A stretch of 64,000 nt of DNA from sequence record PQ356295.1; one strand, given 5' to 3'. Shown here piece by piece: positions 43,547 to 57,084 of this stretch. Every line of letters begins with the position of its first letter. The first letter of the stretch is position 1. Below the pieces are notes generated by a model that saw nothing but the letters and a program-made list of their open reading frames with translations, was not told the origin of the DNA and made no database searches. Made by a program: the position numbers and the translations under genes. Source of the DNA: Escherichia phage KKE7M.

Positions 43547-43561
43547 TGAGAATTATTATCA
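43547..43561. promoter_or_regulatory. Fur-box-like 7-1-7 palindrome TGAGAATTATTATCA
   Basis: 14/15 match to TGATAAT-N-ATTATCA. Confidence 0.45.
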
Positions 43562-43741: not shown

Positions 43742-43756
43742 TGATAATGATTATCA
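43742..43756. promoter_or_regulatory. Fur-box-like palindrome TGATAATGATTATCA (perfect 7-1-7 match), with TATACT -10-like hexamer 14 bp downstream
   Basis: Exact match to Fur 7-1-7 consensus TGATAAT-N-ATTATCA. Confidence 0.55.
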
Positions 43757-44279: not shown

Positions 44280-44640
44280 ATATTTCTTGTTATAATTATT
44301 GTATGAAATGATTACGGTATGAAATGATTATTTAGGTAATAGATAGTAAGGTAAAGATTAGATCATAAATAGATAGGATATTAATTATTTAGTAATGTTA
44401 CTAACAATTTAATAGTTACTTTGTGCAACAATTCGATAGATTATAGTTATAGTTTTAAAGGTTAGATAGATTATATTTAGCTTGGTAATGATTTATATTA
44501 GTTATTGTTGTTTAATATAAGGTTATCAATGAGATAGTAACAGTAAGTTATAAATAAAGGTGAAATAATTAGCTTTAATTTAGTTAGATAACTTATTATT
44601 TTATAGGTTAGATGGTCATAAGTTAAGAATGATTATCATT
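44280..44640. repeat. AT-rich iteron-like repeat block (TAGATAG repeats, 14-bp direct repeat GTATGAAATGATTA x2)
   Basis: Read directly; ORF-free. Confidence 0.5.
44624..44638. promoter_or_regulatory. Fur-box-like palindrome TAAGAATGATTATCA
   Basis: 13/15 match to 7-1-7 consensus. Confidence 0.4.
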
Positions 44641-44681
44641 ATTGCATTATGCAGTTTATTGCATAAATAATCAGCTATAAA

Positions 44682-44696
44682 TGAGAATGATTATTA
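44682..44696. promoter_or_regulatory. Fur-box-like palindrome TGAGAATGATTATTA
   Basis: 13/15 match to 7-1-7 consensus. Confidence 0.4.
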
Positions 44697-44903
44697 TTTA
44701 AGAGGAAAGACAAGAAAAAGGCTGTTTTTGCCAGATAGTTACATGGAGAAATTAAAAATAAGCGGTCTAAAACACGTTGTAAGCGCCTTATGATCTTCAT
44801 GGTATGGTTGTTCATCTGCTCCTTGATTAGCTCGATACCGCGATCTATTCACTTTTTTCGGTGAACGTTTTTGATAGGTAAAAGCTATCATCTTTATTTA
44901 GGT

Positions 44904-44930
44904 AAAAAGAAAGGGCGCTTTGTGCGCCCT
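44904..44930 (-). terminator. terminator hairpin GGGCGC-TTTGT-GCGCCC with flanking A/T tracts
   Basis: Downstream of minus gene ending 44946; same hairpin family at 46082 and 50473. Confidence 0.55.
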
Positions 44931-44945
44931 GGTGTGAAATGTTAT

Positions 44946-45329
44946 TTACTGATAAGCTGGATCGTTTGTTATATCAATCCAATGAGCTAAATTAATTTTA
45001 TTTTTTGCTTTCATTTTCTCGATCAAACGTTCGGCTAATGTCTCGGAACGAATATAAACATGCTCGCTAAAATCTTGCCCCGTTTCCTCGTCGATCATCT
45101 CGCGATATTCAATTTTCCCGATAAACGCATGATTCAGCGCATAAGTTTTACCCGTGTACCAGTTGTGCAAATGAATCTCACATTTATAATCATCGCTATA
45201 ACCTTCGGTTGTTCTAACTTCAACCAGATCGCCTTTAAACACTGATAAGCACCACATAGGATCACGATCTACAGCGCCGTTAAAGTCTTTACCGTTTACA
45301 GTAGCCGCCAGGTTGATGATATTGCTCAT
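44946..45329 (-). CDS. hypothetical protein (127 aa)
   Basis: Start refined to MSNIINL with GAGGAA RBS. Confidence 0.5.
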   Translation of the reverse strand: MSNIINLAATVNGKDFNGAVDRDPMWCLSVFKGDLVEVRTTEGYSDDYKCEIHLHNWYTGKTYALNHAFIGKIEYREMIDEETGQDFSEHVYIRSETLAERLIEKMKAKNKINLAHWIDITNDPAYQ

Positions 45330-45416
45330 GGTGATTCCTCGTTTACCGTTTAAAATGATTTGCCCTACGTGATAAATAATAATGTAAGCGCGATCCGGTG
45401 TCAATAAGAAAGTTAA

Positions 45417-45653
45417 TTATTTTGCATAATCAATAACAGCGCAGATTTTATCATTTACATCTTGTAAATCAAAAGCATAGGCGATCTTACCTTGCAATTT
45501 CCCACGGGTGAAACAGATACGATAAACGCCGTTTTTACTATCCTCTTCTGATTTTAGTATTTTTGCAACCGTTGCAATTAACAGATCATCAGAGTAAGCG
45601 ATAAAGCCACCACGTAAAATAGGTGATTTTTTGAGGATCATGACTTCTTTCAT
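45417..45653 (-). CDS. hypothetical protein (78 aa)
   Basis: ORF; promoter TTGACC-N17-TAATAT upstream (rc of 45702-45730). Confidence 0.45.
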   Translation of the reverse strand: MKEVMILKKSPILRGGFIAYSDDLLIATVAKILKSEEDSKNGVYRICFTRGKLQGKIAYAFDLQDVNDKICAVIDYAK

Positions 45654-46074
45654 TTTCTTTTTCCTGTTTTCGTTTTGGGTATGTTCTACCCTCTAAAAAC
45701 AATATTAAACTGCTATGATTTATCGGTCAATAGATGAGATTGTAAAGATTTGATAGTTTATTCCTTTGATGTTTTGTTGTTTGATAGTTATTAGCTATCA
45801 ATATATAGCGGGATCTTCCGGTGATTATCTTCCCCTGTCCCCAGGTGCCGCCCGTTCCATAATAATAATCAAAAGCAGGGTAAAAGGCAAGATAAAAAGC
45901 AAATTATTTCCTATGTGCTTTAAACGCTCTAAACAGCTTTATAACAGCTTTTTCATCCTGGTAAGGGGATTAATCATCCCTACCTTGTTTAAGCGGTTAC
46001 AGTCGGTTTTAGATGGTTTTACGCCACCTTTACGCCTATTCTTTACGTGTTGTTTCCATCGTGAAAAAAGAATA

Positions 46075-46107
46075 CAAAAAAGGGCGCTTAGTGCGCCCCT
46101 TTCTTTT
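46075..46107. terminator. bidirectional terminator hairpin GGGCGC-TTAGT-GCGCCC
   Basis: A tract before and T-rich tract after. Confidence 0.55.
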
Positions 46108-46115
46108 ACCGTGTA

Positions 46116-46505
46116 TTAATATTCGTTATAATACATCGCTAATTTTTCATCAAAAGCCGATTGACGATCAGCATACTCCCAAAACATTTCCTGATCCTGT
46201 TGGTCATCTTCATCCATCATGTTAAACTGTGCTACTTCCTGGTAAGTGATCGCCATATTATAACGATAGGTGATCTCTTCTGCGATGTTTTCCGGTAAAG
46301 ATGATTCTACACTGTCTAACAGCATATTTAACATCATTTCAGCCGCTTTTTCATCATTATCAAAGCAGTAAGCAGACCATGCCGCATGATGCTTATTCTT
46401 CATCTTTGCAATCAAGCCATTGACTAAAAAAGGCGCTACGTTGTTAACGATACCCTGTAAAGATTGGAATTTTTCAACGTTAGAAACAGAAACCAGGTTG
46501 CGCAT
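46116..46505 (-). CDS. hypothetical protein (129 aa)
   Basis: Start refined; track start ATG lies inside the 5' stem-loop. Confidence 0.5.
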   Translation of the reverse strand: MRNLVSVSNVEKFQSLQGIVNNVAPFLVNGLIAKMKNKHHAAWSAYCFDNDEKAAEMMLNMLLDSVESSLPENIAEEITYRYNMAITYQEVAQFNMMDEDDQQDQEMFWEYADRQSAFDEKLAMYYNEY

Positions 46506-46528
46506 AGTATTTACCTTTTTGATTACCT

Positions 46529-46587
46529 GGCGGGAAACCATTTCCCGCCTACGTGGTAAATAATACCATACTGGGGATCGGTGTCAA
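46529..46587 (-). promoter_or_regulatory. promoter plus 5' stem-loop cassette (TTGACA-N16-TATTAT then GGCGGGAAATGGTTTCCCGCC)
   Basis: Read directly; hairpin 46529-46549. Confidence 0.55.
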
Positions 46588-46593
46588 TACTTT

Positions 46594-46980
46594 TTATTCA
46601 ATATAAATCAAATTATCTTCACCAATGTAAGCATGCACCGATGGCATTAATTTAGCGGCATTTGTTAGGCGGTTCGCCGTGTTAGTGGTGTATATTTCAG
46701 GGCGATCCCAAAAGCCTACGCCGTGACCGTTACGGGTAAAATGTAAATCATTCCCGATCTGGTTTGCTGTAGCGCCGTCGCTCATTGCCTCAGAGATAGC
46801 TGCAACATTGGCATTACAAAAGGCGGTCACATCGCTGGTAATACGTTTCAGGGCGCTAGAAGAAAAATCATAATCGTCTAGATTCTCAATATATTCCCCA
46901 TTGTGATCCGTCGCTGGTTCGGCAAAAATAAAGGCTTCTTTATAGCCGTTGATCATTTCGTTAATGATTTCTGTTTTCAT
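46594..46980 (-). CDS. hypothetical protein (128 aa)
   Basis: ORF. Confidence 0.5.
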   Translation of the reverse strand: MKTEIINEMINGYKEAFIFAEPATDHNGEYIENLDDYDFSSSALKRITSDVTAFCNANVAAISEAMSDGATANQIGNDLHFTRNGHGVGFWDRPEIYTTNTANRLTNAAKLMPSVHAYIGEDNLIYIE

Positions 46981-47192
46981 GCTGTACGCTCAACAATAAT
47001 AATGGTTTGCGGGATCTCGTTTTCTACTACTATCAAGGCTTTTTTCTGCGTGATAGATATCTTTACCCGCTTCAGCGTGGCGGTAAAGTCTTTCATTTCG
47101 TCACGTGGTGTTTTAGTGCAATACCAGATCTCAGGTTTACCTATTTGCAAGCCGCGTAAAAATTCCGTTTTACCTGTCTTATTCGTGATCAT
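46977..47192 (-). CDS. hypothetical protein (71 aa)
   Basis: Start refined to ATG with AAGGTG RBS. Confidence 0.45.
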   Translation of the reverse strand: MITNKTGKTEFLRGLQIGKPEIWYCTKTPRDEMKDFTATLKRVKISITQKKALIVVENEIPQTIIIVERTA

Positions 47193-47202
47193 TTGTTTCA
47201 CC

Positions 47203-47307
47203 TTATCCAATACCGTGGGAAGATAGGATCATGTTAGCCATAGTTGCAATCACTCCAACCGATAACGCCAGGCCCACTATTACAACCGTGAAAATTTTCT
47301 CTAACAT
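47203..47307 (-). CDS. small hydrophobic peptide (34 aa)
   Basis: Preceded by promoter/stem-loop cassette; short. Confidence 0.3.
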   Translation of the reverse strand: MLEKIFTVVIVGLALSVGVIATMANMILSSHGIG

Positions 47308-47325
47308 GATGCTACCCTCATTAGT

Positions 47326-47387
47326 GGGCGTTGCCTTATTGCCCCGCCCTATGTGATACATATTATCAGCTTATTAGCCGTTGTCAA
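47326..47387 (-). promoter_or_regulatory. promoter plus stem-loop cassette (variant hairpin GGGCG...CGCCC)
   Basis: TTGACA (rc of 47382-47387) and CCTATGTGATACAT box. Confidence 0.45.
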
Positions 47388-47492
47388 TTACTTTTTTAAA
47401 CTTCTTTCAAAGAGAAGATCATCGATCTCAGAAACAATAAGCGTTATCAAAGGAATAATAACCGCCGCGCACATCATGGTAAGAATAATCAT
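47388..47492 (-). CDS. small hydrophobic peptide (34 aa)
   Basis: MIILTMMCAAVIIPLITLIV...; preceded by cassette at 47511. Confidence 0.3.
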   Translation of the reverse strand: MIILTMMCAAVIIPLITLIVSEIDDLLFERSLKK

Positions 47493-47510
47493 TTTAGTTC
47501 TCTCTATTCT

Positions 47511-47570
47511 GGCGGGAAACCATTTCCCGCCCTACGTGGTACACTTTACCAGATAACCGCATATTGTCAA
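47511..47570 (-). promoter_or_regulatory. promoter plus stem-loop cassette (GGCGGGAAATGGTTTCCCGCC)
   Basis: Hairpin 47511-47531; TTGACA rc at 47565-47570. Confidence 0.55.
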
Positions 47571-47571
47571 A

Positions 47572-47766
47572 CTATTTTTTACAAGGGATCAGTAAACTTC
47601 TCGCTACTGCTTCACGAAAACCTTTACTTTTTATTAGATCTATTGTTGCAGGGTGACAAGTAAAAGCCTTTGACCATTTTTGATCACCTGGTTTACGGGC
47701 GAAAATGTATACTTCCCCGTCAATTTCATCCCAACGAGTATTGCTTGTTAGTTTTTTAAGCGCCAT
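47572..47766 (-). CDS. hypothetical protein (64 aa)
   Basis: Start refined to MALKKLTS. Confidence 0.45.
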   Translation of the reverse strand: MALKKLTSNTRWDEIDGEVYIFARKPGDQKWSKAFTCHPATIDLIKSKGFREAVARSLLIPCKK

Positions 47767-47789
47767 GATGATTTCTCTTTTAGTTGTGA

Positions 47790-47845
47790 GCGGCACTATT
47801 GCCGCCCTACGCAATACATTCTACCCTATTTATAATTGTTGTCAA
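47790..47845 (-). promoter_or_regulatory. promoter plus stem-loop cassette (GCGGCAATAGTGCCGC variant)
   Basis: TTGACA-N16-TAGAAT then hairpin. Confidence 0.5.
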
Positions 47846-47846
47846 A

Positions 47847-48116
47847 CTATTTTTTCAAGCTCGCCCAGTCAAAACACGGCGGGATCTCGTTAAAACTTGT
47901 GCCCTGTAAAGCACATAATTTTTTAGCAATAGCCGCCGTGACCTGGCGCTGTACGCGCGGATCTGCTACTGATTGGAGAAAGTAGGCGGCTTTATATGTG
48001 ATCATGCTTTCGCCTGTTTCCTTGTTAACATGATGCACTATTTTAGCCTTATCATCTTTTACCAGGGTGTAACCGGATTCGATGGCCTTGATTGCAACGT
48101 CCAATGATATTTTCAT
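47847..48116 (-). CDS. hypothetical protein (89 aa)
   Basis: ORF. Confidence 0.45.
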   Translation of the reverse strand: MKISLDVAIKAIESGYTLVKDDKAKIVHHVNKETGESMITYKAAYFLQSVADPRVQRQVTAAIAKKLCALQGTSFNEIPPCFDWASLKK

Positions 48117-48162
48117 GATTTATCTCTTTATTGATGGCGGGGAATACTCCCCGCCTTATTAA

Positions 48163-48333
48163 TTACTCTTCATCGTCGCCGTTGTAGTATTCAATGCCGT
48201 TTTCATCGGTTACGGTAATATTAACGCCACCGATAGCAACACGATCACGGGCAAACGTCATGGCTTCATTTAAATCTTCAGACCAAAAAATATTGTGACC
48301 TTTGCGCGATACGTAAAACATAGTCGGGATCAT
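48163..48333 (-). CDS. hypothetical protein (56 aa)
   Basis: Below cutoff; preceded by cassette at 48357. Confidence 0.35.
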   Translation of the reverse strand: MIPTMFYVSRKGHNIFWSEDLNEAMTFARDRVAIGGVNITVTDENGIEYYNGDDEE

Positions 48334-48356
48334 GATTTGTTTCTCTTCTGCTGTGA

Positions 48357-48416
48357 GCGGGAAACCATTTCCCGCCCTATGTGATAAACTTTACTACGTT
48401 GTTTGCCTACTGTCAA
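48357..48416 (-). promoter_or_regulatory. promoter plus stem-loop cassette
   Basis: Hairpin GCGGGAAACCATTTCCCGC 48357-48375; TTGACA rc 48411-48416. Confidence 0.55.
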
Positions 48417-48417
48417 A

Positions 48418-48702
48418 TTATTTTTTAATGTTTTGCCCTACAAAATTGATCACATCTTTAAGCTGTTTCTCAGTCATGATCGTGCCTGGTAGTTCCTCTT
48501 TGATTTCTTGCGGTAAATAGATATTACCGCGCCAGGTTAATAAACAACCGTTTTGATCTTCGCAGATAGAATAAGAGAAGATCCACTCATTATCATTCTC
48601 AAGCTCCCAAAAGCACAAAAAATCTTCTTTCCCTAAGTTTTCAACGGTTAAGCATAAGCCGCGACGTGCTGCATAGTTGGAAAGTGCTTTTGTGATCTTC
48701 AT
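48418..48702 (-). CDS. hypothetical protein (94 aa)
   Basis: ORF. Confidence 0.45.
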   Translation of the reverse strand: MKITKALSNYAARRGLCLTVENLGKEDFLCFWELENDNEWIFSYSICEDQNGCLLTWRGNIYLPQEIKEELPGTIMTEKQLKDVINFVGQNIKK

Positions 48703-48721
48703 ATCTTATCTCTTCTGTTAA

Positions 48722-48784
48722 GGCGGGAAAACCATTTCCCCGCTCTATGAGATACAATATACCCCTTATCAGGTGTGCTGTCAA
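48722..48784 (-). promoter_or_regulatory. promoter plus stem-loop cassette
   Basis: Hairpin 48722-48743; TTGACA rc 48779-48784. Confidence 0.5.
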
Positions 48785-49108
48785 TCAATAATCTTTAATA
48801 TTTTCCACATTTACAAAAGTGTGTTTATTTTCTAAGTTTTCGCCGTACCATTGCCCAATGTTGATTTCTGCGGTGCGCAACCAGGACATGCCGCGTTCTA
48901 TCTTTTTGCTTGCAATGTCGATCCGGCTTTTACATAGTGCTTTCGCTTGCAATGTAAAAACACTATTGCCCTGTAATGCTTCCAGGTCATCATGTGCAAG
49001 GCGATACTCTTTAAAGCCTGATTCTATCATTTCAATAGCATCAAGTAAACGCGCGCGATGATAGAAAAAATCAGAGTTATCCAAATAAACACCGATCACA
49101 GATTTCAT
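48785..49108 (-). CDS. hypothetical protein (107 aa)
   Basis: Start refined to MKSVIGVYL. Confidence 0.45.
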   Translation of the reverse strand: MKSVIGVYLDNSDFFYHRARLLDAIEMIESGFKEYRLAHDDLEALQGNSVFTLQAKALCKSRIDIASKKIERGMSWLRTAEINIGQWYGENLENKHTFVNVENIKDY

Positions 49109-49437
49109 AATTTTACCCTTTTGTTTGCGGCCTTTGCCGTTTTCAAGATATAGTTTAAAGCATAACAAAAAATTGTCAAGCCTTTAAAGCGTACAACTAT
49201 AAAACCTATTAAAACACAATGTATAACAACATGGCTATAGTAGCAATACAACATAAAGCCATGCTTGTTTTCCTTCCTTCCTCGTATGCTGGATTTATTA
49301 CGCTATATTGTACGGGAATAATTTTCATGCTGTTTCCTTAATGTCTTAAAACGTGGTTTACAATAGAAACAAGTATACAGAAGAAAAAAGATCCTGACAA
49401 TAAGATCCCGAAAAATAAATGTAAATAGGGCATGGTT

Positions 49438-49740
49438 TTACTCCTTAAAAAAATCATTGACAATTAAACTGATAACGCCCAGCACCAGATCACCAGGTAG
49501 CGCCGCGCTTTCGTTGTTGCTTGTTTGCACTTCCTCACTAGTACCAGCATGATAGATTGCATGGTAAGCAATAGTATAATAACCTTTCGTTATTTCTTTA
49601 AGATTAATGATTAGCACGTTATTTGTTTCATCTTGAAACAATTTAGCGGTGATAGTATTGTTTTCTTTTACACTATCGACTTTTATTGATGGATCATTTA
49701 CACCAGAAAAAAGAAAAAACGTTTTAGCTATGCCGTTCAT
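49438..49740 (-). CDS. hypothetical protein (100 aa)
   Basis: ORF with GGAG RBS. Confidence 0.45.
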   Translation of the reverse strand: MNGIAKTFFLFSGVNDPSIKVDSVKENNTITAKLFQDETNNVLIINLKEITKGYYTIAYHAIYHAGTSEEVQTSNNESAALPGDLVLGVISLIVNDFFKE

Positions 49741-49787
49741 GTAGTTCTCCTTTGTTGTGTGTATCTTATAACGTGCTTTCTATGTTG

Positions 49788-50189
49788 TCAATCTTTTATT
49801 TCGGTGCATTTTGCTAGGGTATACGTTGCAAGTGCTGACACTAGTTTTTCATTGTTACGATCTGCGGCTGTACTGTGTACTTTTTGGATACTTTTTAACC
49901 ACGGTGTAAAATTTTGAGTAGTGAGCACACTGGTAATAATTTCACATGGCACGTTTTCATTTAAGCCATTAACAATAGATTTATCTATTTTTGCCGTTAA
50001 TTGTGTAACAGCACCATAAGCGATCATGTGTGAATCCTCCATGATTTCATCGGGGATCGCATTATTAATGATCATGACGTTTTCCATTGCATCAACGGCG
50101 CTTAATTCTGCTACTGTGGAGGATATCGCCGCGTGAGATGTTCCAACCATGCCAAAAGAGATTAAACCAGCGATCAATAATTTTTTCAT
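49788..50189 (-). CDS. secreted/periplasmic protein with signal peptide (133 aa)
   Basis: MKKLLIAGLISFGMVGTSHA signal-like N-terminus. Confidence 0.5.
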   Translation of the reverse strand: MKKLLIAGLISFGMVGTSHAAISSTVAELSAVDAMENVMIINNAIPDEIMEDSHMIAYGAVTQLTAKIDKSIVNGLNENVPCEIITSVLTTQNFTPWLKSIQKVHSTAADRNNEKLVSALATYTLAKCTEIKD

Positions 50190-50197
50190 TTCTTGCC

Positions 50198-50440
50198 TCA
50201 TATATGTTTTATTGAGATTATATTGTCACTATATACAACGTTTTTCAACGTGTCAATAAAAATTTTATTGTCTTCAATCCCCAGGATCACGCCGCTAGTT
50301 ATAAAGCCATATTGATCACGATATCTGGCGCATAACCTTTGCCCCTGGGCTAGTGCCTTGCTTATTTCGTCTAATTTCATTTTTAAAGCTCCTGTAAAGC
50401 CGTCTAACGTTGATTTATAGGCTTGCCCTGGCGTTACCAT
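50198..50440 (-). CDS. hypothetical protein (80 aa)
   Basis: ORF. Confidence 0.45.
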   Translation of the reverse strand: MVTPGQAYKSTLDGFTGALKMKLDEISKALAQGQRLCARYRDQYGFITSGVILGIEDNKIFIDTLKNVVYSDNIISIKHI

Positions 50441-50472
50441 TGCCTATGGGTAACAAGCCTCTATATAAGCTA

Positions 50473-50497
50473 AAAGGGCGCTTATTGCGCCCTTTTT
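50473..50497. terminator. terminator hairpin AAAGGGCGC-TTATT-GCGCCCTTTTT
   Basis: Perfect hairpin with T tract. Confidence 0.6.
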
Positions 50498-50498
50498 G

Positions 50499-50636
50499 TT
50501 ATTCGTTCCAGTGTCTTTTTGTGCTGCGATCTCTTTTTGTTTTGTTCCGCTTATCGCCTTTCTTGGTAATCTCTTCGTTCCAATTTTTACGCGCCTTGCT
50601 GCGGTTGAATTTTTCGATCTGCTGTGATGCGTTCAT
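50499..50636 (-). CDS. small highly basic protein (45 aa)
   Basis: Lys/Arg-rich; short. Confidence 0.3.
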   Translation of the reverse strand: MNASQQIEKFNRSKARKNWNEEITKKGDKRNKTKRDRSTKRHWNE

Positions 50637-50651
50637 GTTTTTTCCTCTTAA

Positions 50652-51011
50652 TTACGCAACGTTATGCTGTTTTGCCAGGGTTACAATCATGCTTGCAATA
50701 TATAACCAATAATTTTCCCTCTCACGGGTAACGGTTGTTTCTTTGCTTGTTTCTTTTATGTACTTCCATTCAATTAACAAGTGATCGATCTCGTTATAAT
50801 CAAAAGCAATATTGACTTCTGACGGTAAACCTTGTAACCATGAGGCTATTGCCTTGATCACGTTATAATTGTAACGTTTTTGATTATCGGGATACCAGTA
50901 TTCAGAGTTAAAACGGCGCATCAGTTCGGTGATCTTTTCTTTTTCGGTTGTAGTACCATCAAAAGAAATAGCCGACACAATGTAAGTTTTAATTGCTTTT
51001 ACTGATTTCAT
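50652..51011 (-). CDS. hypothetical protein (119 aa)
   Basis: ORF. Confidence 0.5.
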   Translation of the reverse strand: MKSVKAIKTYIVSAISFDGTTTEKEKITELMRRFNSEYWYPDNQKRYNYNVIKAIASWLQGLPSEVNIAFDYNEIDHLLIEWKYIKETSKETTVTRERENYWLYIASMIVTLAKQHNVA

Positions 51012-51031
51012 AATCTTATCTCTTTATTGAT

Positions 51032-51090
51032 GGCGGGAAACCATTTCCCGCCGTTGTTGTTACTTTACTTATAAATGATGCTACTGTCAA
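51032..51090 (-). promoter_or_regulatory. promoter plus stem-loop cassette
   Basis: Hairpin GGCGGGAAACCATTTCCCGCC 51032-51052; TTGACA-N17-TAAAGT. Confidence 0.55.
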
Positions 51091-51097
51091 GCGAATA

Positions 51098-51268
51098 TTA
51101 TTTATTTTTTAACGTTAATGTTCCCAGCTTATCAGCGTGACGCAGACCAGGAAAGATCCATTTTCCTGATTCATCTTTCACCGGGGCTTTAAGCGTAGCG
51201 CCCAGGTTGGCGGCGTTAACTTTACGTGCAACGTTGCGAGCGGCTTCACGGGTGGCGAAAGTGATCAT
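51098..51268 (-). CDS. hypothetical protein (56 aa)
   Basis: Below cutoff; preceded by cassette at 51292. Confidence 0.35.
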   Translation of the reverse strand: MITFATREAARNVARKVNAANLGATLKAPVKDESGKWIFPGLRHADKLGTLTLKNK

Positions 51269-51291
51269 GATGTTTCCTCTTCTCTTTGTTA

Positions 51292-51354
51292 GGCGGTGGG
51301 CTATTCCACCGCCTTAATGAATATAATTTACTTTATTGATGGCCCTGGAGTCAA
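51292..51354 (-). promoter_or_regulatory. promoter plus stem-loop cassette (hairpin GGCGGTGG...CCACCGCC)
   Basis: TTGACT-N18-TAAATT then hairpin. Confidence 0.5.
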
Positions 51355-51372
51355 GGCCATCTAAAAATAAAT

Positions 51373-51714
51373 TTACTCGTTTTCTTCCAGCTCTGAAAGA
51401 TCTTCTTTCACTTCTTCGAGCTCTGTCTGCAATTCTTGGTACTCTTCATCGTCCTCAATATCCAGGCTGCCGATGTAGTCGCTAAATCCGCAGCGGTAAG
51501 CGATAGGATCTAACTCCTTGAGGATACGCGACGGAAGAAAAGAAATGTCTCCGATCATAATTTCGCCGTAGATCTCGTCTAACCATTCATCATAGTTTTC
51601 GTCGTACTTGTCCTCGTCGATTTCAAAGTTATCGATCTTGTTCTCAAGGTCTGCGATCTGTTTTTTCAGCGCGGCGATCTGCATAGCTTTTTCTGCGGCG
51701 GTCATAGTAGTCAT
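51373..51714 (-). CDS. hypothetical acidic coiled-coil protein (113 aa)
   Basis: ORF. Confidence 0.5.
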   Translation of the reverse strand: MTTMTAAEKAMQIAALKKQIADLENKIDNFEIDEDKYDENYDEWLDEIYGEIMIGDISFLPSRILKELDPIAYRCGFSDYIGSLDIEDDEEYQELQTELEEVKEDLSELEENE

Positions 51715-51739
51715 GGTGTTTTCTCCTTTTGTGTATTCT

Positions 51740-51793
51740 GGGAAGTTTTCCCGTTTACGTGTTTAAGTATATCGATTTTAGTTATCTTGTCAA
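51740..51793 (-). promoter_or_regulatory. promoter plus short stem-loop (GGGAA-GTT-TTCCC)
   Basis: TTGACA rc at 51788-51793. Confidence 0.4.
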
Positions 51794-51801
51794 TATTATT
51801 T

Positions 51802-52029
51802 TTAGTTTAACTGATCCAGGCACAACAAGCGATCAACATTTAGATCGGTTAGGCTAATCGTTGGCACTTGGTAGGCTTCGATGTACTCAACGCTCGACCA
51901 TTGCCCAAAGTTAGCGACCGCCCAGCTATTCAAGGAGGAGTGAAGATCATCCCCTTTCTTCTCGGTGATAACTGCTACTACCTGGGATATTCCAACCGTG
52001 CCGGATACGCGAACAATAACGATAGCCAT
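51802..52029 (-). CDS. hypothetical protein (75 aa)
   Basis: ORF. Confidence 0.45.
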   Translation of the reverse strand: MAIVIVRVSGTVGISQVVAVITEKKGDDLHSSLNSWAVANFGQWSSVEYIEAYQVPTISLTDLNVDRLLCLDQLN

Positions 52030-52051
52030 AATGTTAACCTTTCTTTGATTT

Positions 52052-52111
52052 GGCGGGAAACCATTTCCCGCCCTATGCGATAAACTATACCAGATTAAAA
52101 AACGTTGTCAA
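52052..52111 (-). promoter_or_regulatory. promoter plus stem-loop cassette
   Basis: TTGACA-N16-TATAGT then GGCGGGAAATGGTTTCCCGCC. Confidence 0.55.
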
Positions 52112-52120
52112 CTGCTTTTA

Positions 52121-52360
52121 TTACATTCCTACCATAGCGGCGCGGATACTGGTTTTACTGAATTTATAGCCATCTGGCGTAGTATTTTGGCCCATTTCGT
52201 TAAGTAGTGACATCATTTCACGCGCGGCGTTATCTTTATTGTTGTTCACGGCTATAAATTCTTTTGCCATATTATAAAAACCTGGATCGTTATTAATCCA
52301 AAGGCTTACATTCCAATGAGTTTTATTTTTGTGACCGTTGTACATTTTAGATTTAGCCAT
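52121..52360 (-). CDS. hypothetical protein (79 aa)
   Basis: ORF. Confidence 0.45.
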   Translation of the reverse strand: MAKSKMYNGHKNKTHWNVSLWINNDPGFYNMAKEFIAVNNNKDNAAREMMSLLNEMGQNTTPDGYKFSKTSIRAAMVGM

Positions 52361-52384
52361 GATGTTAATCTCTTTTTCAGTGAG

Positions 52385-52442
52385 GCGGGAACTATTCCCG
52401 CTCTCGATATAAGTATTATATGCTTTTTATTCGTGCTGTCAA
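52385..52442 (-). promoter_or_regulatory. promoter plus stem-loop cassette
   Basis: TTGACA-N16-TATAAT (perfect -10) then GCGGGAATAGTTCCCGC. Confidence 0.55.
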
Positions 52443-52448
52443 TGCTTT

Positions 52449-52814
52449 TTATAAATCTTTTTTGCGTTTAACATCGCTTGCATGACTGTATACAGCGATC
52501 CCATTGTCACGGCAAAAACGGGAAAGGTAAGCATAATTTGAAAAGTCTTTACCTTCCAGGTTGATAACCTTGCTAAACTCTTCCAGGGCAACGGTATCAA
52601 AATGATCACCATAACCATATTGAAACGGAACGTTAACGACTTCAATCAGTTTACCGCCGATCTCAACGTCAACCATCAAAGAGAAATAAGTATTACCATA
52701 CGACTTTTGAAACCAGCGACGGGCGCTAATATGTACCGCTTCAATGCTGGATAGCTCAATTTTAGCAGTGTTAGCCAGGGTAGCATAAGCAGAAACATTG
52801 ATATTTTTAGCCAT
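52449..52814 (-). CDS. hypothetical protein (121 aa)
   Basis: ORF. Confidence 0.5.
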   Translation of the reverse strand: MAKNINVSAYATLANTAKIELSSIEAVHISARRWFQKSYGNTYFSLMVDVEIGGKLIEVVNVPFQYGYGDHFDTVALEEFSKVINLEGKDFSNYAYLSRFCRDNGIAVYSHASDVKRKKDL

Positions 52815-52909
52815 AGTCTTTAATCTCTTTTGATTAGTTAGGAGTATTCCCGATAAAAGTTATTATGCTTGTGCTATCGTTCGTTGTCAATAGCACAAGA
52901 CTAAAACTT

Positions 52910-53089
52910 TTAACGATAATCATCATAGGCTTTATTGACCTGGCGAATATAGCATTCAAAAGCTAGATCAATAGATTTATATTCACGGATATAATCACCA
53001 TAGGAAACCACATACATTTCTATAGCTTCCTCATATGCCAGGATGATAGAATCTAAACCTACGATCTCAGTCTTTGCAATAATAGCCAT
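52910..53089 (-). CDS. hypothetical protein (59 aa)
   Basis: Below cutoff; own promoter TTGACA (rc 53149-53154) and TATAAT. Confidence 0.35.
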   Translation of the reverse strand: MAIIAKTEIVGLDSIILAYEEAIEMYVVSYGDYIREYKSIDLAFECYIRQVNKAYDDYR

Positions 53090-53176
53090 GCTTTTATTCC
53101 TTAGTAATGTTTCAATCTATATAAGCATTATAGCTTACTGATTTCAGGTGTCAAGTGATTTTTTATTTCACCTTAT

Positions 53177-53232
53177 GGGGCGTTGCCCCGCTTTATGTGG
53201 TACATATTACGGGGCTTATTTGCATATGTCAA
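53177..53232 (-). promoter_or_regulatory. promoter plus stem-loop cassette (GGGGC-GTT-GCCCC)
   Basis: TTGACA rc 53227-53232. Confidence 0.45.
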
Positions 53233-53235
53233 GCC

Positions 53236-53790
53236 TTACACAATGCAATTTTCATAATTTTTTAGGGCTTGTCTTTTTTCCTCTTCTGTCGGCATGTATG
53301 GCTGGATCTCTTCCTCTTCCAGAGTAGGCATGATTTCTTCCTCTTCCTCCTGGTCGCCCTGGTCTTCCTCTTGCGCTATGGTAACAAGTTTATTGATCTT
53401 CTCCTGGGCTTTAATCAATTTTGCATCTAGCACCATTTTAGCGGTGTTGTATACAGTCCAGGCCATGCGCTTTTCTTCGTATGCCTTATCTAGTGCGGCT
53501 AATTTAGCGGGATACTCTTCCAACACCTTAAAAGCCGGATCAATGTTGTACAAGGGATTATTTTTAGCGTCATCGCTTGGATCTGCGGCGCTTGCAATGT
53601 CAGCGTTACCATTCGCCAGCCATCCAGGACGAACGGATCGCGTCCTGGTGTTGCCGTTGCTCTTTGCCGCTCGATTTCCTATCTGCTCCCCGCTATACCC
53701 TACCATGTGATCGATCATGTCATCTGGTATTATGCGCGGATCATTTGCGTCATGCTTTACCCAGGACTGGATCACATATTCACGCCCCAT
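53236..53790 (-). CDS. hypothetical protein with acidic C-terminal tail (184 aa)
   Basis: ORF. Confidence 0.5.
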   Translation of the reverse strand: MGREYVIQSWVKHDANDPRIIPDDMIDHMVGYSGEQIGNRAAKSNGNTRTRSVRPGWLANGNADIASAADPSDDAKNNPLYNIDPAFKVLEEYPAKLAALDKAYEEKRMAWTVYNTAKMVLDAKLIKAQEKINKLVTIAQEEDQGDQEEEEEIMPTLEEEEIQPYMPTEEEKRQALKNYENCIV

Positions 53791-53791
53791 G

Positions 53792-54052
53792 CTAGTTCGC
53801 CTCTTCTGTTAGTAGTTTACATACCTTAAACATGCTTGCAGCGTCTTTTGACGGTAGCCAGCCTATTCGATACACTCCAGGATCTGGATTAGTTACATCA
53901 GTCAGTTGCGCGTTGCGATGATTAAAAATAGTGTAACCGCCGCCAGCACGGGGATAAACATTATCTTTAAACCTGATAGCGTATCTCGCCAGGTCGAACG
54001 TTGTAGCATGTTCAAAAGCGATCACATTATCAAAAACTTTTAGAAAAAACAA
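53792..54052 (-). CDS. hypothetical protein (86 aa)
   Basis: TTG start after GGGGAGGA. Confidence 0.45.
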   Translation of the reverse strand: MFFLKVFDNVIAFEHATTFDLARYAIRFKDNVYPRAGGGYTIFNHRNAQLTDVTNPDPGVYRIGWLPSKDAASMFKVCKLLTEEAN

Positions 54053-54220
54053 GATTATCCTCCCCAGCGTTTAAAGCCCGTTGCACGGTTATTTTTTAGC
54101 TCTCGTTTTAGTCTCTTGCAACGGTTTACAAGTGCAAACCGTGCCGGAGTCGTAACAGTAGCGCCGTTTTTGGTATGAATACTCATTACATATTGTTTCA
54201 TAAAGTTTTATCCTATATAA

Positions 54221-54273
54221 GCGGGAACAATTCCCGCTTTAAGATAGCTTATCAGGTTTTAGTGCAATGTCAA
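54221..54273 (-). promoter_or_regulatory. promoter plus stem-loop cassette
   Basis: Hairpin GCGGGAACAATTCCCGC 54221-54237; TTGACA rc 54268-54273. Confidence 0.5.
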
Positions 54274-54279
54274 CCGTTT

Positions 54280-54642
54280 TTATTCGTAAATTTTACCGCT
54301 TTCTACCCATACCATAACACGGCGCATGTTATCCCATGCATCTTGTTGCAGATTTAAGGCATGCAATTCTTCCGTGGTGCTCATACCTAGAACGGGCTTG
54401 CTATATGTTACAAAGAGATCGCCAGCATATTCATAAGCCAGGGTAAGATCACATTGAATCATCTTTTTAATCATAGCATCAAGCATCATATTAGCGGCAT
54501 GTTGATCACGTTTCAGCGGTAACGTTGCGATCTGTGTGCGATAGCTTTCGATCCGTGCATCCACTGCATCACGCGAAAGGTTTTTCACGTCATCGCGGAA
54601 AGATACCAGATTAAACATGATAGTATTGATTTGCTTGCTCAT
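54280..54642 (-). CDS. hypothetical protein (120 aa)
   Basis: ORF. Confidence 0.5.
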   Translation of the reverse strand: MSKQINTIMFNLVSFRDDVKNLSRDAVDARIESYRTQIATLPLKRDQHAANMMLDAMIKKMIQCDLTLAYEYAGDLFVTYSKPVLGMSTTEELHALNLQQDAWDNMRRVMVWVESGKIYE

Positions 54643-54664
54643 TGTGTTACCCTTTCTTTGATTT

Positions 54665-54724
54665 GGCGGGAAACCATTTCCCGCCTTATGTGGTATATAT
54701 TACCAGATTATTTTTCAGTGTCAA
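54665..54724 (-). promoter_or_regulatory. promoter plus stem-loop cassette
   Basis: Hairpin 54665-54685; TTGACA rc 54719-54724. Confidence 0.55.
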
Positions 54725-54727
54725 GCC

Positions 54728-55000
54728 TTAAAACAAAAATGCTATATCTTGCGCTTTTAGTGTAGTGTCGATCATTTTCGGGCTTTTATAATCGACAAAG
54801 CGCGCGGTTTTTTCAATAACGAAGCCGAGGTAATCTTGTTTATTGAAATCACATTCTTTTTTAAATGTTTCCCGTGCCACTGTGATCGCTGCGTCCAGGG
54901 ATAAACGTCCATCAATATTGATGTTAGCGAAAGATCCGCCACCGCGCATAGGTTTACCAGTGATACCCTTTACGATCATTGATGCGCTATATGATGCCAT
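54728..55000 (-). CDS. hypothetical protein (90 aa)
   Basis: ORF. Confidence 0.45.
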   Translation of the reverse strand: MASYSASMIVKGITGKPMRGGGSFANINIDGRLSLDAAITVARETFKKECDFNKQDYLGFVIEKTARFVDYKSPKMIDTTLKAQDIAFLF

Positions 55001-55024
55001 GATTATTTCTCTCTTCTGTTATGA

Positions 55025-55080
55025 GCGGCACTATTGCCGCCCTATGTGATACATCTTATCAGATTAAAAAACGTTGTCAA
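55025..55080 (-). promoter_or_regulatory. promoter plus stem-loop cassette
   Basis: TTGACA-N16-TAAGAT then GCGGCAATAGTGCCGC. Confidence 0.5.
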
Positions 55081-55089
55081 GAATATTTT

Positions 55090-55185
55090 TTAGAAAATAA
55101 CAACCGCTACTACAATCCAAAATGGAACGGCTAGAATGATAGCGTTAATCGTTCCAACCGTCAAGCTGTTTTCTTTCTTGATCAT
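55090..55185 (-). CDS. small membrane peptide (31 aa)
   Basis: Hydrophobic; strong promoter TTGACG-N17-TATTAT upstream; short. Confidence 0.3.
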   Translation of the reverse strand: MIKKENSLTVGTINAIILAVPFWIVVAVVIF

Positions 55186-55451
55186 CGTTATCAACCTTTT
55201 ATAAGTAATGTTATTGTGACGGTGGATTGTGGAGATCCTCACCTTTGCCCGTCCTGCATTGCACCCGCCTTTTATTTATTGTCGTTGTGCCTTGCCCCCC
55301 TCGACAAGATGAATAATATGTTATTACCCTGGTAACGTCAACCATTTTTTTAATCTTTTTTCATTTCTTTTTTGCTTGCTATCTATAAAGGAAACGGCTA
55401 TTATCTTTCTACCGCGCCAACCAGGGCGCACATCAAAGAAAGGGCGATACC

Positions 55452-55718
55452 ATGACAAATACTCCTTTACATCTCATGCACTCATTGGGCTGGCAAGGCG
55501 GCACGGTGCACCAGGTAGCAAGCGCAACGGGCTTAAAGGTTGAAACCGTTCTCAACCTGGGCGATCATAAGGTGGAAGAGATAGATCATTTTGATACGTT
55601 CGCAAATGGTTATCTATGGGCTTGCAGTGGCGGCGGGGAAAGCAAGATCCCACCAGGGGCGCGGGGCGACATGTATTTTTGGTTAGGTGTCCTATCCTGG
55701 CAAGAAAACAAAAAATAA
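55452..55718 (+). CDS. hypothetical protein (88 aa)
   Basis: ORF; promoter-like TTGCTA-N17-TATTAT upstream. Confidence 0.45.
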   Translation: MTNTPLHLMHSLGWQGGTVHQVASATGLKVETVLNLGDHKVEEIDHFDTFANGYLWACSGGGESKIPPGARGDMYFWLGVLSWQENKK

Positions 55719-55721
55719 TCT

Positions 55722-55750
55722 TGACAAGCCCAGGGATCGGGCTTATACTG
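55722..55750 (+). promoter_or_regulatory. sigma70-like promoter TTGACA-N17-TATACT
   Basis: Points into ORF-free Fur-box/repeat region. Confidence 0.4.
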
Positions 55751-55981
55751 TTTTACATACAGAAGAGGAAGCGCCACCCCCACGGCGTAAAGGCGGGGCT
55801 AACATACCAGGGGGGCACTGGTTGGAAGGTTGATCGCCGGTAGCTCGTCTAAAATAAATTTGTAAAGAAATGTAAAGATAAAAATAATCGCTTGCTTTTG
55901 TTGTTGGTTATGCTATTCTTATTGTATGGCGAGGGGACACGGGAGCGCGAGACAAACACCACCCCTGCGCGTTATTCTCTA

Positions 55982-56000
55982 AATGAGAAAAATTCTCATT
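55982..56000. promoter_or_regulatory. palindrome AATGAGAA-AAA-TTCTCATT
   Basis: Perfect inverted repeat related to adjacent Fur-box-like sites. Confidence 0.4.
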
Positions 56001-56024
56001 TGCTAACGATTCTCATTCTCTTAC

Positions 56025-56039
56025 TGAGAATGATTATCA
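56025..56039. promoter_or_regulatory. Fur-box-like palindrome TGAGAATGATTATCA
   Basis: 14/15 match to 7-1-7 consensus. Confidence 0.5.
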
Positions 56040-56053
56040 CTTACATAATTAAA

Positions 56054-56068
56054 TGATAATGATTCTCA
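56054..56068. promoter_or_regulatory. Fur-box-like palindrome TGATAATGATTCTCA
   Basis: 14/15 match. Confidence 0.5.
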
Positions 56069-56076
56069 TTTACAAA

Positions 56077-56091
56077 TGAGAATGATTATCA
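56077..56091. promoter_or_regulatory. Fur-box-like palindrome TGAGAATGATTATCA
   Basis: 14/15 match. Confidence 0.5.
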
Positions 56092-56116
56092 TACGCACAC
56101 CTATAAAAACACGAAA

Positions 56117-56320
56117 TTGAACTTTTCATTTTTGATTTTTCTACGGAAAAAGGCAAAAAAACTTTAAATAAACTGGGGAATTTTTAAAAAATTGAAGTTT
56201 TCATTTTCAAAATCTGGATAGAAATACATACAAAAACTTTAAATAATTTTGACCAAACTTGAACTTTTCATTTTCTAAATTTGTACCCAAAAATCTGTAA
56301 AAACTTTAAATAATTTTGTA
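56117..56320. repeat. three tandem ~67-77 bp repeat units, each with boxes TTGAA(C/G)TTTTCATTTT and AAAAACTTTAAATAA
   Basis: Box 1 at 56117, 56192, 56259; box 2 at 56154, 56231, 56300. Confidence 0.6.
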
Positions 56321-56532
56321 CTTTTTATAAAAATGATTTTACTGTTCTGTTATAAGTAGTAGTTAAGAGATAGTATGTCTTTTAAAGATCAGATACCATA
56401 GTCCAACAAACAAATTAAATACTTTATTAACAGGGTATAGAATACTACTTACTCTGGATATATTATTCAGAGGGTGAATTTCCGTACATGAAACCCACAC
56501 CCCTTTTTATAAAAATAAAAATTTTCAAAATA

Positions 56533-57084
56533 TCAGGAAATATCAGATTGTGCTTTTAGATAAACAGCAAGGTCTGTATGCCATTTTCCTAAAAGATTTT
56601 GTCCTTTCCAACAATCCTTATTTTCCACGTCACGATCCCACATCCCCATTTTGATACCATAAATAGAATCATAAGGGCTTGCCTCTACGAACTCCTTATC
56701 TGCGTAAGCGATAAGTTTATTTTTGAGATCTTCATTTTGTGTGTATTTAAGATACAAACCACGCTTGACAATCTTCTCCCGTAAAGAAGCCCAAGTATCT
56801 TCATCGTAATCTTTAACTAATCTACCTAGTCGCTTATAATATGCCTGTTCTTTTTCTCCTGTATATCTTAGATCTCCGGTTAAAATAGAAGATGCAATGT
56901 TGTAATCATAAAACAAACATGCTTTTCTCCACATCATATATTGTTCCACACAAGTAAATTCAACAGAACTTGTAATAGAATTATTATACTTGGGTGCTAA
57001 AGGTTCAATAAAAGATGATAGATACCAGTTGCTAAATTCATCTTTTGCTGAAAAGAAGAACACATACTTATCAGTAATCCGCAT
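56533..57084 (-). CDS. NADAR (YbiA-like) family protein
   Basis: VFFFSAKDEFSNW and CVEQYMMWRKACLF match YbiA FYS...FSNF and SEHYFQAQKF; NLLGKWHTDLAVYL C-terminal match. Confidence 0.65.
   Translation of the reverse strand: MRITDKYVFFFSAKDEFSNWYLSSFIEPLAPKYNNSITSSVEFTCVEQYMMWRKACLFYDYNIASSILTGDLRYTGEKEQAYYKRLGRLVKDYDEDTWASLREKIVKRGLYLKYTQNEDLKNKLIAYADKEFVEASPYDSIYGIKMGMWDRDVENKDCWKGQNLLGKWHTDLAVYLKAQSDIS

Follow-up and report, generated by a model that had tools for sequence, protein, structure and literature searches.

The window analysed here, the whole 64-kb stretch of DNA from a phi92-like phage (phi92 group, Stephanstirmvirinae), contains five 15-bp inverted repeats, TGA(G/T)AAT-N-ATT(C/A)TCA, within 110 bp of non-coding sequence (55982-56091). 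The best-supported explanation of this array is that Fur-type sites are kept at defined non-coding positions for a cis-acting purpose, and comparison of the sequences indicates that these phages probably bring host Fur onto their DNA. Fur boxes are well known as operators of iron genes in bacteria and, in a few cases, of cargo genes in prophages. Here this familiar type of operator stands in a setting that is new for it, conserved and away from promoters in virulent phages, and as far as we could find in the searchable literature this setting has not been described before. If Fur binds to the boxes, the phages would either read or exploit the iron status of the host or use an abundant host protein as a building block, and they would do so at the boundary of the early region and at the genome ends.

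The box array and its position in the genome

The coordinates of the boxes and of the surrounding features are listed in Table 1; the Fur 7-1-7 consensus used for scoring was TGATAATNATTATCA. Box 1 has one mismatch to the phage consensus, TGAKAAT-N-ATTMTCA, and three to the canonical Fur 7-1-7 sequence. Box 2 is the degenerate member of the array, with one of its two half-sites perfect; its counterpart in phi92, TGAGAATCATTAGCA, has two mismatches. The 19-mer of box 4, GATAATGATTCTCATTTAC, matches the classical Fur box at 16 of 19 positions. An earlier note on this DNA had described an array of three 14/15 boxes (starting at 56025, 56054 and 56077) plus the palindrome at 55982-56000. All four sites are present as described, and box 2 had been missed. 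The note also placed the array in an ORF-free stretch between convergent genes, which are an 88-aa ORF on the plus strand and a NADAR-domain gene on the minus strand, and downstream of a TTGACA-N17-TATACT promoter, which exists but lies one position away from where it had been put. The first array that it implied was found as well, as the boxes starting at 43547, 43742, 44624 and 44682.

Table 1. Positions of the boxes, promoters, predicted RNAs, repeats and neighbouring genes in the window.
Feature	Position	Strand	Sequence or description
Equivalent of the phi92-type 343-bp direct terminal repeat	43493-43834		95.3% identity to the phi92 left terminal repeat
Terminal-repeat box, first	43547-43561		
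Terminal-repeat box, second	43742-43756		perfect 7-1-7
Subterminal boxes	44624-44638 and 44682-44696		in the 1.1-kb non-coding stretch from the terminal repeat to the last gene
Last gene, gp30.8-like	44946-45404	-	borders the 1.1-kb spacer
Early-gene block (small genes)	44946-55345	-	about 10 kb, between terminus and array
88-aa ORF	55452-55718	+	left flank of the non-coding stretch
Promoter P1 (sigma-70)	55721-55749	+	TTGACA-N17-TATACT, 11/12 matches
RNA1, predicted structured non-coding RNA	55754-55860	+	conservation and covariance model
Conserved box between RNA1 and P2	55858-55878	+	ATTTGTAAAGAAATGTAAAGA (TTTGTAAAGA-type in homologous loci)
Promoter P2	55892-55919	+	TTGCTT-N16-TATTCT, read from the sequence
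RNA2, short conserved element	55926-55975	+	AUGGCG...GAGACAAACACC...CGUUAU, ends at the edge of box 1
Box 1	55982-56000		AATGAGAAAAATTCTCATT, perfect palindrome AATGAGAA-AAA-TTCTCATT
Box 2 (degenerate, weaker)	56001-56015		TGCTAACGATTCTCA, 3 mismatches to Fur 7-1-7
Box 3	56025-56039		TGAGAATGATTATCA, 14/15 to Fur 7-1-7
Box 4	56054-56068		TGATAATGATTCTCA, 14/15 to Fur 7-1-7
Box 5	56077-56091		TGAGAATGATTATCA, 14/15 to Fur 7-1-7
Three direct repeats of about 70 bp	56114-56334	+	TTGAACTTTTCATTTT...AAAAACTTTAAATAA, AT-rich DNA
NADAR-domain gene	56533-57084	-	right flank of the non-coding stretch

The boxes are clustered far beyond chance. Consensus matches with at most two mismatches number nine in the whole 64-kb window, against 1.10 +/- 0.99 expected from dinucleotide shuffles, and none of 100 shuffles gave nine. 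Seven of the nine fall in two ORF-poor regions, the array itself (region B) and the stretch at 43.5-44.7 kb (region A). With the weight matrix described below, all nine matches of at least 14 bits in the 64 kb lie within these two regions. Together with the conservation among related phages, the shuffles rule out chance, or low-complexity AT-rich sequence, as the source of the boxes.

Region A corresponds to the end of the genome. The phi92 record annotates 343-bp direct terminal repeats, which align to 43834-43493 of the window, and several related records start or end at about 43493, the equivalent of the physical genome end. The block of small genes between the terminus and the array has at least 22 minus-strand promoters with at least 10/12 sigma-70 matches, most of them with a perfect TTGACA, as is typical of an early region transcribed by the host polymerase. 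On its inner side the block is bordered by region B, which separates it from a co-oriented gene set beyond. Pfam searches of nine ORFs in the neighbourhood returned only the NADAR and gp30.8 domains, and no DNA-binding domain; most early proteins in the window have no family assignment.

The same distribution is seen in phi92, in which 1-4 kb and 50-148.6 kb were scanned for boxes (about 70% of the genome, the window covering the equivalent of 4-50 kb). In the scanned parts, good boxes occur in both terminal repeats, in the right subterminal spacer and in region B, and elsewhere there are two weak isolated matches. The phi92 array lies 11.5-11.6 kb from the right end, or 7.8% of the genome, and the array in the window lies 12.5 kb from the equivalent of the terminus.

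The conserved non-coding module

The array is part of a non-coding module of about 800 bp, in which P1 and RNA1 are followed by P2 and RNA2, the Fur-like boxes and the three direct repeats of about 70 bp. Over the 1.2 kb that surround the array, the window is 100% identical to Escherichia phage 92CQ and 97-98.6% identical to many Justusliebigvirus genomes. In the records of these relatives the locus is annotated only as 'hypothetical protein' or 'repeat_region', and the rV5 genome paper marks just a 'non-coding' box. A comparison with related phages, proposed earlier as a check, was made with homologous loci gathered from a phage database and from viral contigs, and the array proved to be conserved in Stephanstirmvirinae and Vequintavirinae. 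The module is kept across both subfamilies with the same order of elements in all loci. The hosts belong to eight enterobacterial genera, including Escherichia, Salmonella, Klebsiella, Serratia, Erwinia, Pectobacterium and Proteus. In the homologous loci box 1, CATTCTGCAAATGAGAATGATTATCATTCAAC, always occupies the same place after RNA2 and is followed by none to four further boxes. Phages differ in how many boxes they have and in the exact sequence of each, and the motif stays constant. A triple repeat of about 70 bp also follows the boxes in Vequintavirinae, but its sequence is unrelated to that in Stephanstirmvirinae. A motif that is constant while the box number turns over and the neighbouring repeats diverge points to a conserved host factor rather than to a co-evolving phage protein. 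The motifs of the 70-bp repeats were also considered as general phage promoters and rejected, as they are present in the window only at 56114-56334.

Both hexamers of P1 are kept in all homologues, with a variable spacer. P2 falls below the threshold of the promoter scan in the window; its position and hexamers are conserved in 17 loci, the relatives having TTGATC, TTGCAA or TTGACC with TATTAT or TATATT.

RNA1, which lies beside the array, appears from its conservation and covariation to be an unannotated, widely conserved structured RNA, a phage RNA brought to light in the course of this work. In a sensitive BLAST search, the segment 55752-55878 was about 84% identical in distant myoviruses (Mydovirus, Certrevirus, Seunavirus and other Vequintavirinae). 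In that search the box array, for its part, matched T5-like phages. RNAalifold applied to a plain MAFFT alignment gave an unconvincing structure, and realignment with a covariance model was used instead; the model scores 68-117 bits in 24 loci. The proposed fold consists of a 4-bp stem, an H-type pseudoknot (CCCC/GGGG) and a bulged hairpin, and the RNA contains the invariant segment GAUCGCCGGUAGYUCG. Pairing is possible in 89.5% of cells, compared with 28-48% in controls in which the pairing partner was slid along the alignment. The covariation score is 0.151 compared with 0.070 in shuffled alignments, and none of 500 shuffles reached 0.151. Compensatory changes occur in four pairs, one of them within the pseudoknot, which lies outside the model. 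Searches against Rfam 15 gave only chance-level matches (at most 24 bits, against gathering scores of 35-140), so that RNA1 has no credible match to a known RNA family. There is no tRNA in the window, though GCCGGTAGCTCG in RNA1 resembles the 5' part of a tRNA. The structure predicted for RNA2 is weak, a 6-bp terminal helix with two covarying pairs and a consensus fold of -1.04 kcal/mol.

A scan of 55750-56540 on the relevant strands found no intrinsic terminator (GC-rich hairpin plus U-tract), neither on the plus strand after P1 or P2 nor on the minus strand at 56100-56540.

Likeness to Fur operators of E. coli

A weight matrix was built solely from eight sites of the window and then run over E. 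coli K-12 DNA. In the 25-kb ent cluster, the six top-scoring matches all fell in the fepB/entC, fepD/entS and fepA/fes intergenic regions, which are three Fur-regulated divergent promoter regions. In four further regions of 8-10 kb, the best match was each time the promoter of a Fur-regulated gene (fhuA, 19.7 bits; cirA, 16.0 bits; fecI, 22.3 bits; ryhB, 27.9 bits), and the second-best match in the fec region was the fecA promoter (17.4 bits). The matrix derived from phage sites alone thus had its top match in seven of the seven Fur-regulated promoter regions examined. All four consensus matches with at most two mismatches in the 60 kb of E. coli DNA sampled were in Fur promoters.

The phage boxes have 1, 1, 1, 3 and 3 mismatches to the 7-1-7 consensus, and eight validated E. 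coli operator regions have 1-4; for the 19-mer the corresponding figures are 3-5 and 3-7. Boxes of the E. coli Fur regulon such as those of ryhB, fecI, fhuA and entC (19-bp consensus GATAATGATAATCATTATC) share with the phage boxes the inverted repeat, a central G or C and AA/TT flanks. The half-sites that dominate in the phage, TGAGAAT and ATTCTCA, also occur within the fecI, ryhB and fhuA operators. Most phage boxes have a G at position 4 of at least one half-site, where the canonical consensus has T, and this G is also present in natural E. coli Fur operators. Because the matrix results and the mismatch counts match those of validated operators, we regard the phage boxes as operator-grade Fur boxes at the level of sequence.

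The setting of the boxes differs from that of the Fur regulon. Chromosomal Fur operators are typically clusters with 6-bp overlap, whereas the five phage boxes are separate, with their centres spaced 17-29 bp apart within the 110 bp. The phage boxes lie away from promoters and have no iron-related gene nearby; they are found in non-coding DNA of a virulent phage, 3' of the non-coding transcripts and in the terminal repeat. Contrary to the usual geometry of Fur repression, the array overlaps no convincing -35/-10 pair. Promoter-like matches at the array reach 9/12 at most and arise from the boxes themselves, and the boxes in the terminal repeat likewise do not overlap a good promoter. A tblastn search with E. 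coli Fur found nothing better than E = 0.5 in the 64-kb window, and a phage-encoded Fur was dismissed for want of a credible match there.

The inverted repeats could in principle act as hairpins, in which positions 4 (G/T) and 12 (C/A) would pair with each other. These positions were tallied box by box in the phi92/rV5 group (n = 25), in T5-like phages (n = 26) and in other viral contigs (n = 238). They vary independently in the three data sets (Fisher p = 1.0, 0.68 and 0.77), and only about half of the boxes have a complementary combination. This independence indicates selection on the sequence of the half-sites, as for a dimeric protein, and not on pairing.

Possible functions of the array

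As the boxes lie away from good promoters, classical promoter occlusion seems less likely to us than a role as roadblock, boundary or architectural element. Our leading reading, to which we give an even chance, is that the array consists of five host-Fur-type sites used in cis, and that Fur acts there as a roadblock or boundary at the border of the early block. In the cell, abundant Fe2+-Fur dimers would occupy the closely spaced boxes and form a stable nucleoprotein block on the array. As no intrinsic terminator is present, it is this block that would halt RNA polymerase, both the polymerase that starts at P1 and P2 and that which enters from the right, out of the co-oriented minus-strand unit. 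The nucleoprotein block would fix how far the non-coding transcripts extend at their 3' side and would shield the early genes from neighbouring units. It would hold only while Fur is metal-loaded. Under iron starvation, the boxes would lose Fur in its apo form and more polymerase would read through into the repeat region, making the boundary responsive to iron. Occupancy by Fur, the roadblock or insulator effect and the dependence on iron are what we infer from the DNA.

This reading lies closest to one of the proposals of the earlier note, an operator for an untranslated transcript: two conserved non-coding units, P1-RNA1 and P2-RNA2, do lie upstream, the second of them absent from the note. 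The link to the genome terminus, the place at the border of the early block and the match to the T5 repeats described below also go beyond the note. The geometry of a classical operator is not found, because the boxes are located about +57 to +166 downstream of the P2 start, without a good -35/-10 overlap. The other two proposals, a Fur decoy and a site for a phage-specific regulator, have lost ground, as discussed below.

The conservation that suits a roadblock could also be explained by a role of the DNA itself in replication or DNA entry, and here phage T5 provides a parallel. In the 8 kb of T5 (record AY587007) that were scanned, boxes of the phage-array type, for example TAAATGAGAATCATTATCATTTGCATT, make up DRC 1-4 and the palindromes E, G and I (9468-9640). 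Their place is Repeat Region 3 of the left terminal repeat, where DnaA boxes adjoin them and the hairpin palJ and the annotated 7.9% nick follow directly to the right. The shear point of first-step transfer was calculated at about 9618 in Davison's analysis, and the repeats span it. That analysis called the function of the T5 repeats impossible to guess and did not mention Fur, and the T5 literature found by our search does not link these repeats to Fur. Through the shared motif, the 50-year-old problem of the T5 injection-stop repeats becomes directly testable.

Repeat Region 3, the injection stop signal (iss) of T5, has the palindrome TAAATGAGAATCATTATCATTT in common with the array in the window. 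T5 and the phi92 group each have about five boxes where the first (pre-)early block ends on its inner side, some 7.8-7.9% of the genome away from a terminus, and in T5 as in the window other direct repeats follow. A 29-nt string is identical in the arrays of a T5-like phage and a Phapecoctavirus. There are also clear differences. T5 has DnaA boxes (the paired inverted repeats IRD'/IRC') and a LexA-like palindrome beside its array, which the window lacks; the T5 array is inside a 10-kb terminal repeat, whereas the repeat of phi92 is only 343 bp long. The two phages are unrelated and no common pre-early proteins were detected: the window, phi92 and the Vequintavirinae loci gave no match with E < 0.1 to any of 17 T5 left-terminal-repeat proteins, and a shared T5 pre-early DNA-binding protein such as A2 was rejected on this result. 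Finally, two-step DNA entry is known only from T5-like phages; in the window, the position of the array relative to the terminus and the early block would fit such a signal.

Boxes of this type are widespread. Among the matches listed for the exact 19-mer pattern AATGAKAATSATTMTCATT there are more than 120 viral contigs, with GC contents of 21-58%, and at least 17 of the contigs listed have three or more boxes within 200 bp. The latter include a jumbo-phage contig of 345.8 kb and a contig of 21% GC with seven boxes beside DnaA-like boxes. DnaA-like boxes adjoin the boxes in T5 and in one viral contig (L147); in the window, iteron-like repeats adjoin them. Such neighbours speak for a role of the DNA itself in replication or entry. 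Among the matches listed, in viral contigs with full sequence, the box sites lie near contig ends more often than expected (KS p = 0.005), and assemblies that break at repeats could produce the same enrichment.

It is conceivable, if unlikely, that the array corresponds, in the phi92 group, to the T5 injection-stop region, and that it serves as a DNA-entry or architectural signal, or in replication initiation, rather than in transcription control. A protein-bound DNA structure, with Fur alone or together with other proteins, would then mark the end of the early segment that enters first; in the replication version, the boxes would act in initiation together with the adjacent iteron-like repeats. 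The palindromes DRC1-4, palE, palG and palI are the same in T5, at the nick and the shear point, and the distances of the phi92 and window arrays from the genome end would fit a first-entering segment, the DNA in between being the early block. The further boxes within the terminal repeat, the unique AT-rich direct repeats after the array and the enrichment near contig ends also suit such a signal. However, there are no DnaA boxes near region B as there are in T5 (no TTATCCACA-like site with at most one mismatch at 49086-56924), the terminal repeat of phi92 is far from 10 kb, and the searched literature gives no hint of stepwise entry of phi92; a search on phi92 early genes returned nothing relevant. 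The agreement at about 8% may be coincidence, and the contig-end enrichment may be the assembly effect mentioned above. Region B combines unique direct repeats with low GC. The GC skew changes with the orientation of the genes and shows nothing that would point to an origin.

A broader version of this idea takes in all the phages concerned. Large virulent phages of enterobacteria would have Fur-box arrays in common as a cis-acting signal, marking the end of the part that enters first and is transcribed by the host polymerase, and Fur would be the missing host factor of T5 iss. We consider this improbable. It would cover the arrays in T5-like phages, in the phi92 and rV5 groups, in the 345.8-kb jumbo-phage contig and in other viral contigs. 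At T5 iss, Fur might act together with DnaA and LexA. In phages of the phi92 type, DNA entry or early expression would be paused or compartmentalised about 8% into the genome, depending on iron.

We think it quite unlikely that the boxes bind a protein of the phage, or some host protein that is not Fur, their likeness to Fur operators being incidental or a case of mimicry. The window is half of the genome, and most of the early proteins in it lack a family assignment, which leaves room for such a protein. The G at position 4 is also commoner than in the canonical Fur consensus, and the boxes are flanked by other conserved elements that are phage-specific. Against this, and against the phage-specific regulator suggested earlier, the motif cannot be told apart from validated E. 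coli Fur operators and retrieves them specifically. It is invariant in very divergent phages from hosts of eight genera, whereas the neighbouring phage-specific repeats have diverged. It is also common to unrelated T5-like phages and many viral contigs, with no shared pre-early protein detected and no Fur paralogue in the window.

Titration of Fur is a third alternative, with only a small chance of being right. Replicating phage DNA, with about eight boxes per genome unit and hundreds of copies, would act as a sponge for Fur and de-repress iron uptake by the host, the possible benefit being iron for iron-requiring phage enzymes. A multicopy plasmid with a single Fur box de-represses the Fur regulon, which is the principle of the Fur titration assay, and 10 good boxes per virion genome were counted in the scanned parts of phi92, none of them below operator quality. 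Nevertheless, the positions of the boxes are highly specific (the fixed place after RNA2 and the terminal repeat) rather than scattered, and no iron-related phage genes lie beside the arrays. T5 degrades host DNA early, in the pre-early phase, and de-repression of host genes would therefore be moot in T5, which has the same arrays; the presence of the same boxes in T5 makes the decoy of the earlier note less attractive.

It is very improbable that the palindromes are not protein sites and work instead in RNA, as hairpins that terminate or mark the processing of RNA2, or in DNA, as cruciforms. All the boxes are inverted repeats, a stretch of 19 nt with 95% complementarity would let box 4 pair with box 5, and the boxes lie within the predicted transcripts of P1 and P2, but about half of the boxes do not pair at the independently varying positions 4 and 12, the sequence itself is conserved beyond pairing, the stems are AU-rich without a U-tract or a terminator by scan, and the same sequence occurs in non-transcribed contexts such as the terminal repeat.

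Among phages, the nearest parallels are Fur-regulated genes of temperate phages. The stx1 promoter belongs to a Fur-regulated gene carried by a temperate phage. A Fur box is also present upstream of sitABCD in lambdoid phages (PMC6969025). These are host Fur boxes on phage DNA, as in the window, but they are single operators over the promoter of a cargo gene, whereas the window belongs to a virulent phage and has an array without a cargo gene. Our literature search found Fur boxes on phages only upstream of temperate-phage cargo genes (PMC6969025), and nothing on Fur boxes in Stephanstirmvirinae, Vequintavirinae, T5 or virulent phages.

The module also resembles phage replication origins in its layout of tandem strong promoters, then protein-binding repeats, and a unique AT-rich repeat region. 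The primary origin of T7 (tandem promoters plus an AT-rich region), oriE and oriF of T4 and the lambda ori are origins of the transcription-primed or iteron type. Unlike these, the window has no identified initiator gene or DnaA box, and the covariation in RNA1 is typical of a functional RNA, not of a mere primer.

The predicted RNAs and their promoters

As judged from sequence, the segment abutting promoter P1 (TTGACA-N17-TATACT) is a structured non-coding RNA, which we call RNA1. It contains an H-type pseudoknot that shows compensatory changes from CCCC/GGGG to CCAA/TTGG, and its GAUCGCCGGUAGYUCG segment is invariant. An identity of ~84% is retained throughout the Stephanstirmvirinae and many genera of the Vequintavirinae. 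A comparison of RNA1 with Rfam returned no match.

The P1 spacer itself holds a hairpin rich in GC (AAGCCCAGGGATCGGGCTT) that runs into T's, and a terminator scan scored it as terminator-like. The stop codon of the 88-residue open reading frame immediately precedes this hairpin, and the P1 spacers of related phages hold a similar palindrome. Structural support in RNA2, the conserved element following the second promoter (P2), is limited to a weak 6-bp terminal helix.

Features of the window and arrays of Fur-like boxes in further viral contigs
Feature	Position	Strand	Remarks
Terminal repeat equivalent	43493-43834		Equivalent of the 343-bp direct terminal repeat of phi92; contains Fur-like boxes
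AT-rich stretch	43840-44620		ORF-free, very AT-rich; GC ~30%; GC skew positive
Early-promoter block	44900-55400	-	At least 22 near-consensus sigma-70 promoters, densely packed
P1 spacer hairpin	55726-55744		
RNA1 (predicted)	55754-55860	+	Non-coding, structured; no annotation; abuts consensus sigma-70 promoter
P2 and RNA2	55892-55975	+	Second conserved promoter, then ~50-nt element with conserved motif GAGACAAACACC
Direct repeats	56114-56334		Three copies of ~70 bp; GC ~29%; found nowhere else in the window
Arrays in viral contigs	L147, 2484-2843; L135, 3300-3623		Also in L130, L148, L172, L177, L198 and L227

Repeats and exchange of module parts

The direct repeats lie 3' of the Fur-like boxes. 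In the Vequintavirinae the equivalent position is occupied by an unrelated triple repeat (…GAAAAAATACGAT…CGATCGAGAACC), with a TTGACA promoter upstream of it. Such triple repeats may represent either iterons or a repeated RNA module.

In Klebsiella phage NDO71 (L257, 633-735), RNA1 is of the FKP3-type variant with the CCAA/TTGG pseudoknot, whereas RNA2, the boxes and the repeats are of the Mydo type (compared with Mydo itself, L256). This combination of sequence types indicates recombination within the non-coding module.

Genome end and early region

Given the equivalence of 43493-43834 to the phi92 terminal repeat, the physical genome end lies at ~43493 and thus within the window, which accordingly shows the genome in circularly joined or concatemer-style form. 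Many short, tandem-like words, among them 'ggttagatag' and 'tgaaatgatta', occur in the adjacent AT-rich stretch, which lies between the Fur-like boxes of the terminal repeat and those at 44624 and 44682. Many promoters of the early block resemble TTGACA-N16/17-TATAAT, with about one per small gene. At 53089-53187 (-), Rfam gave a sub-threshold match to the RT-17 sRNA, with 27.4 bits (E = 0.11), where the gathering score is 40.4.

Over 43250-44950 the window is just 96.1% identical to the Escherichia phage record 92CQ, compared with 100% around the Fur-like boxes at 55982-56091, and the 92CQ record is ~17 kb shorter than its relatives. Therefore, either the source of the window is a relative with a mosaic genome, or there are faults in the public record.

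Possible host-regulator sites in other phages

In T5 (AY587007, L129), palindrome D (9330-9349, TACTGTATAAATATACAGTA) resembles a LexA (SOS) box. It adjoins DnaA boxes and a Fur-like array, and the T5 injection-stop region may thus be a cluster of host-regulator sites. The arrays in further viral contigs comprise 3-7 Fur-like boxes each. Among the contigs bearing them are one with a GC content of 21%, in which the array abuts DnaA-like boxes, and a jumbo-phage contig of 345.8 kb.
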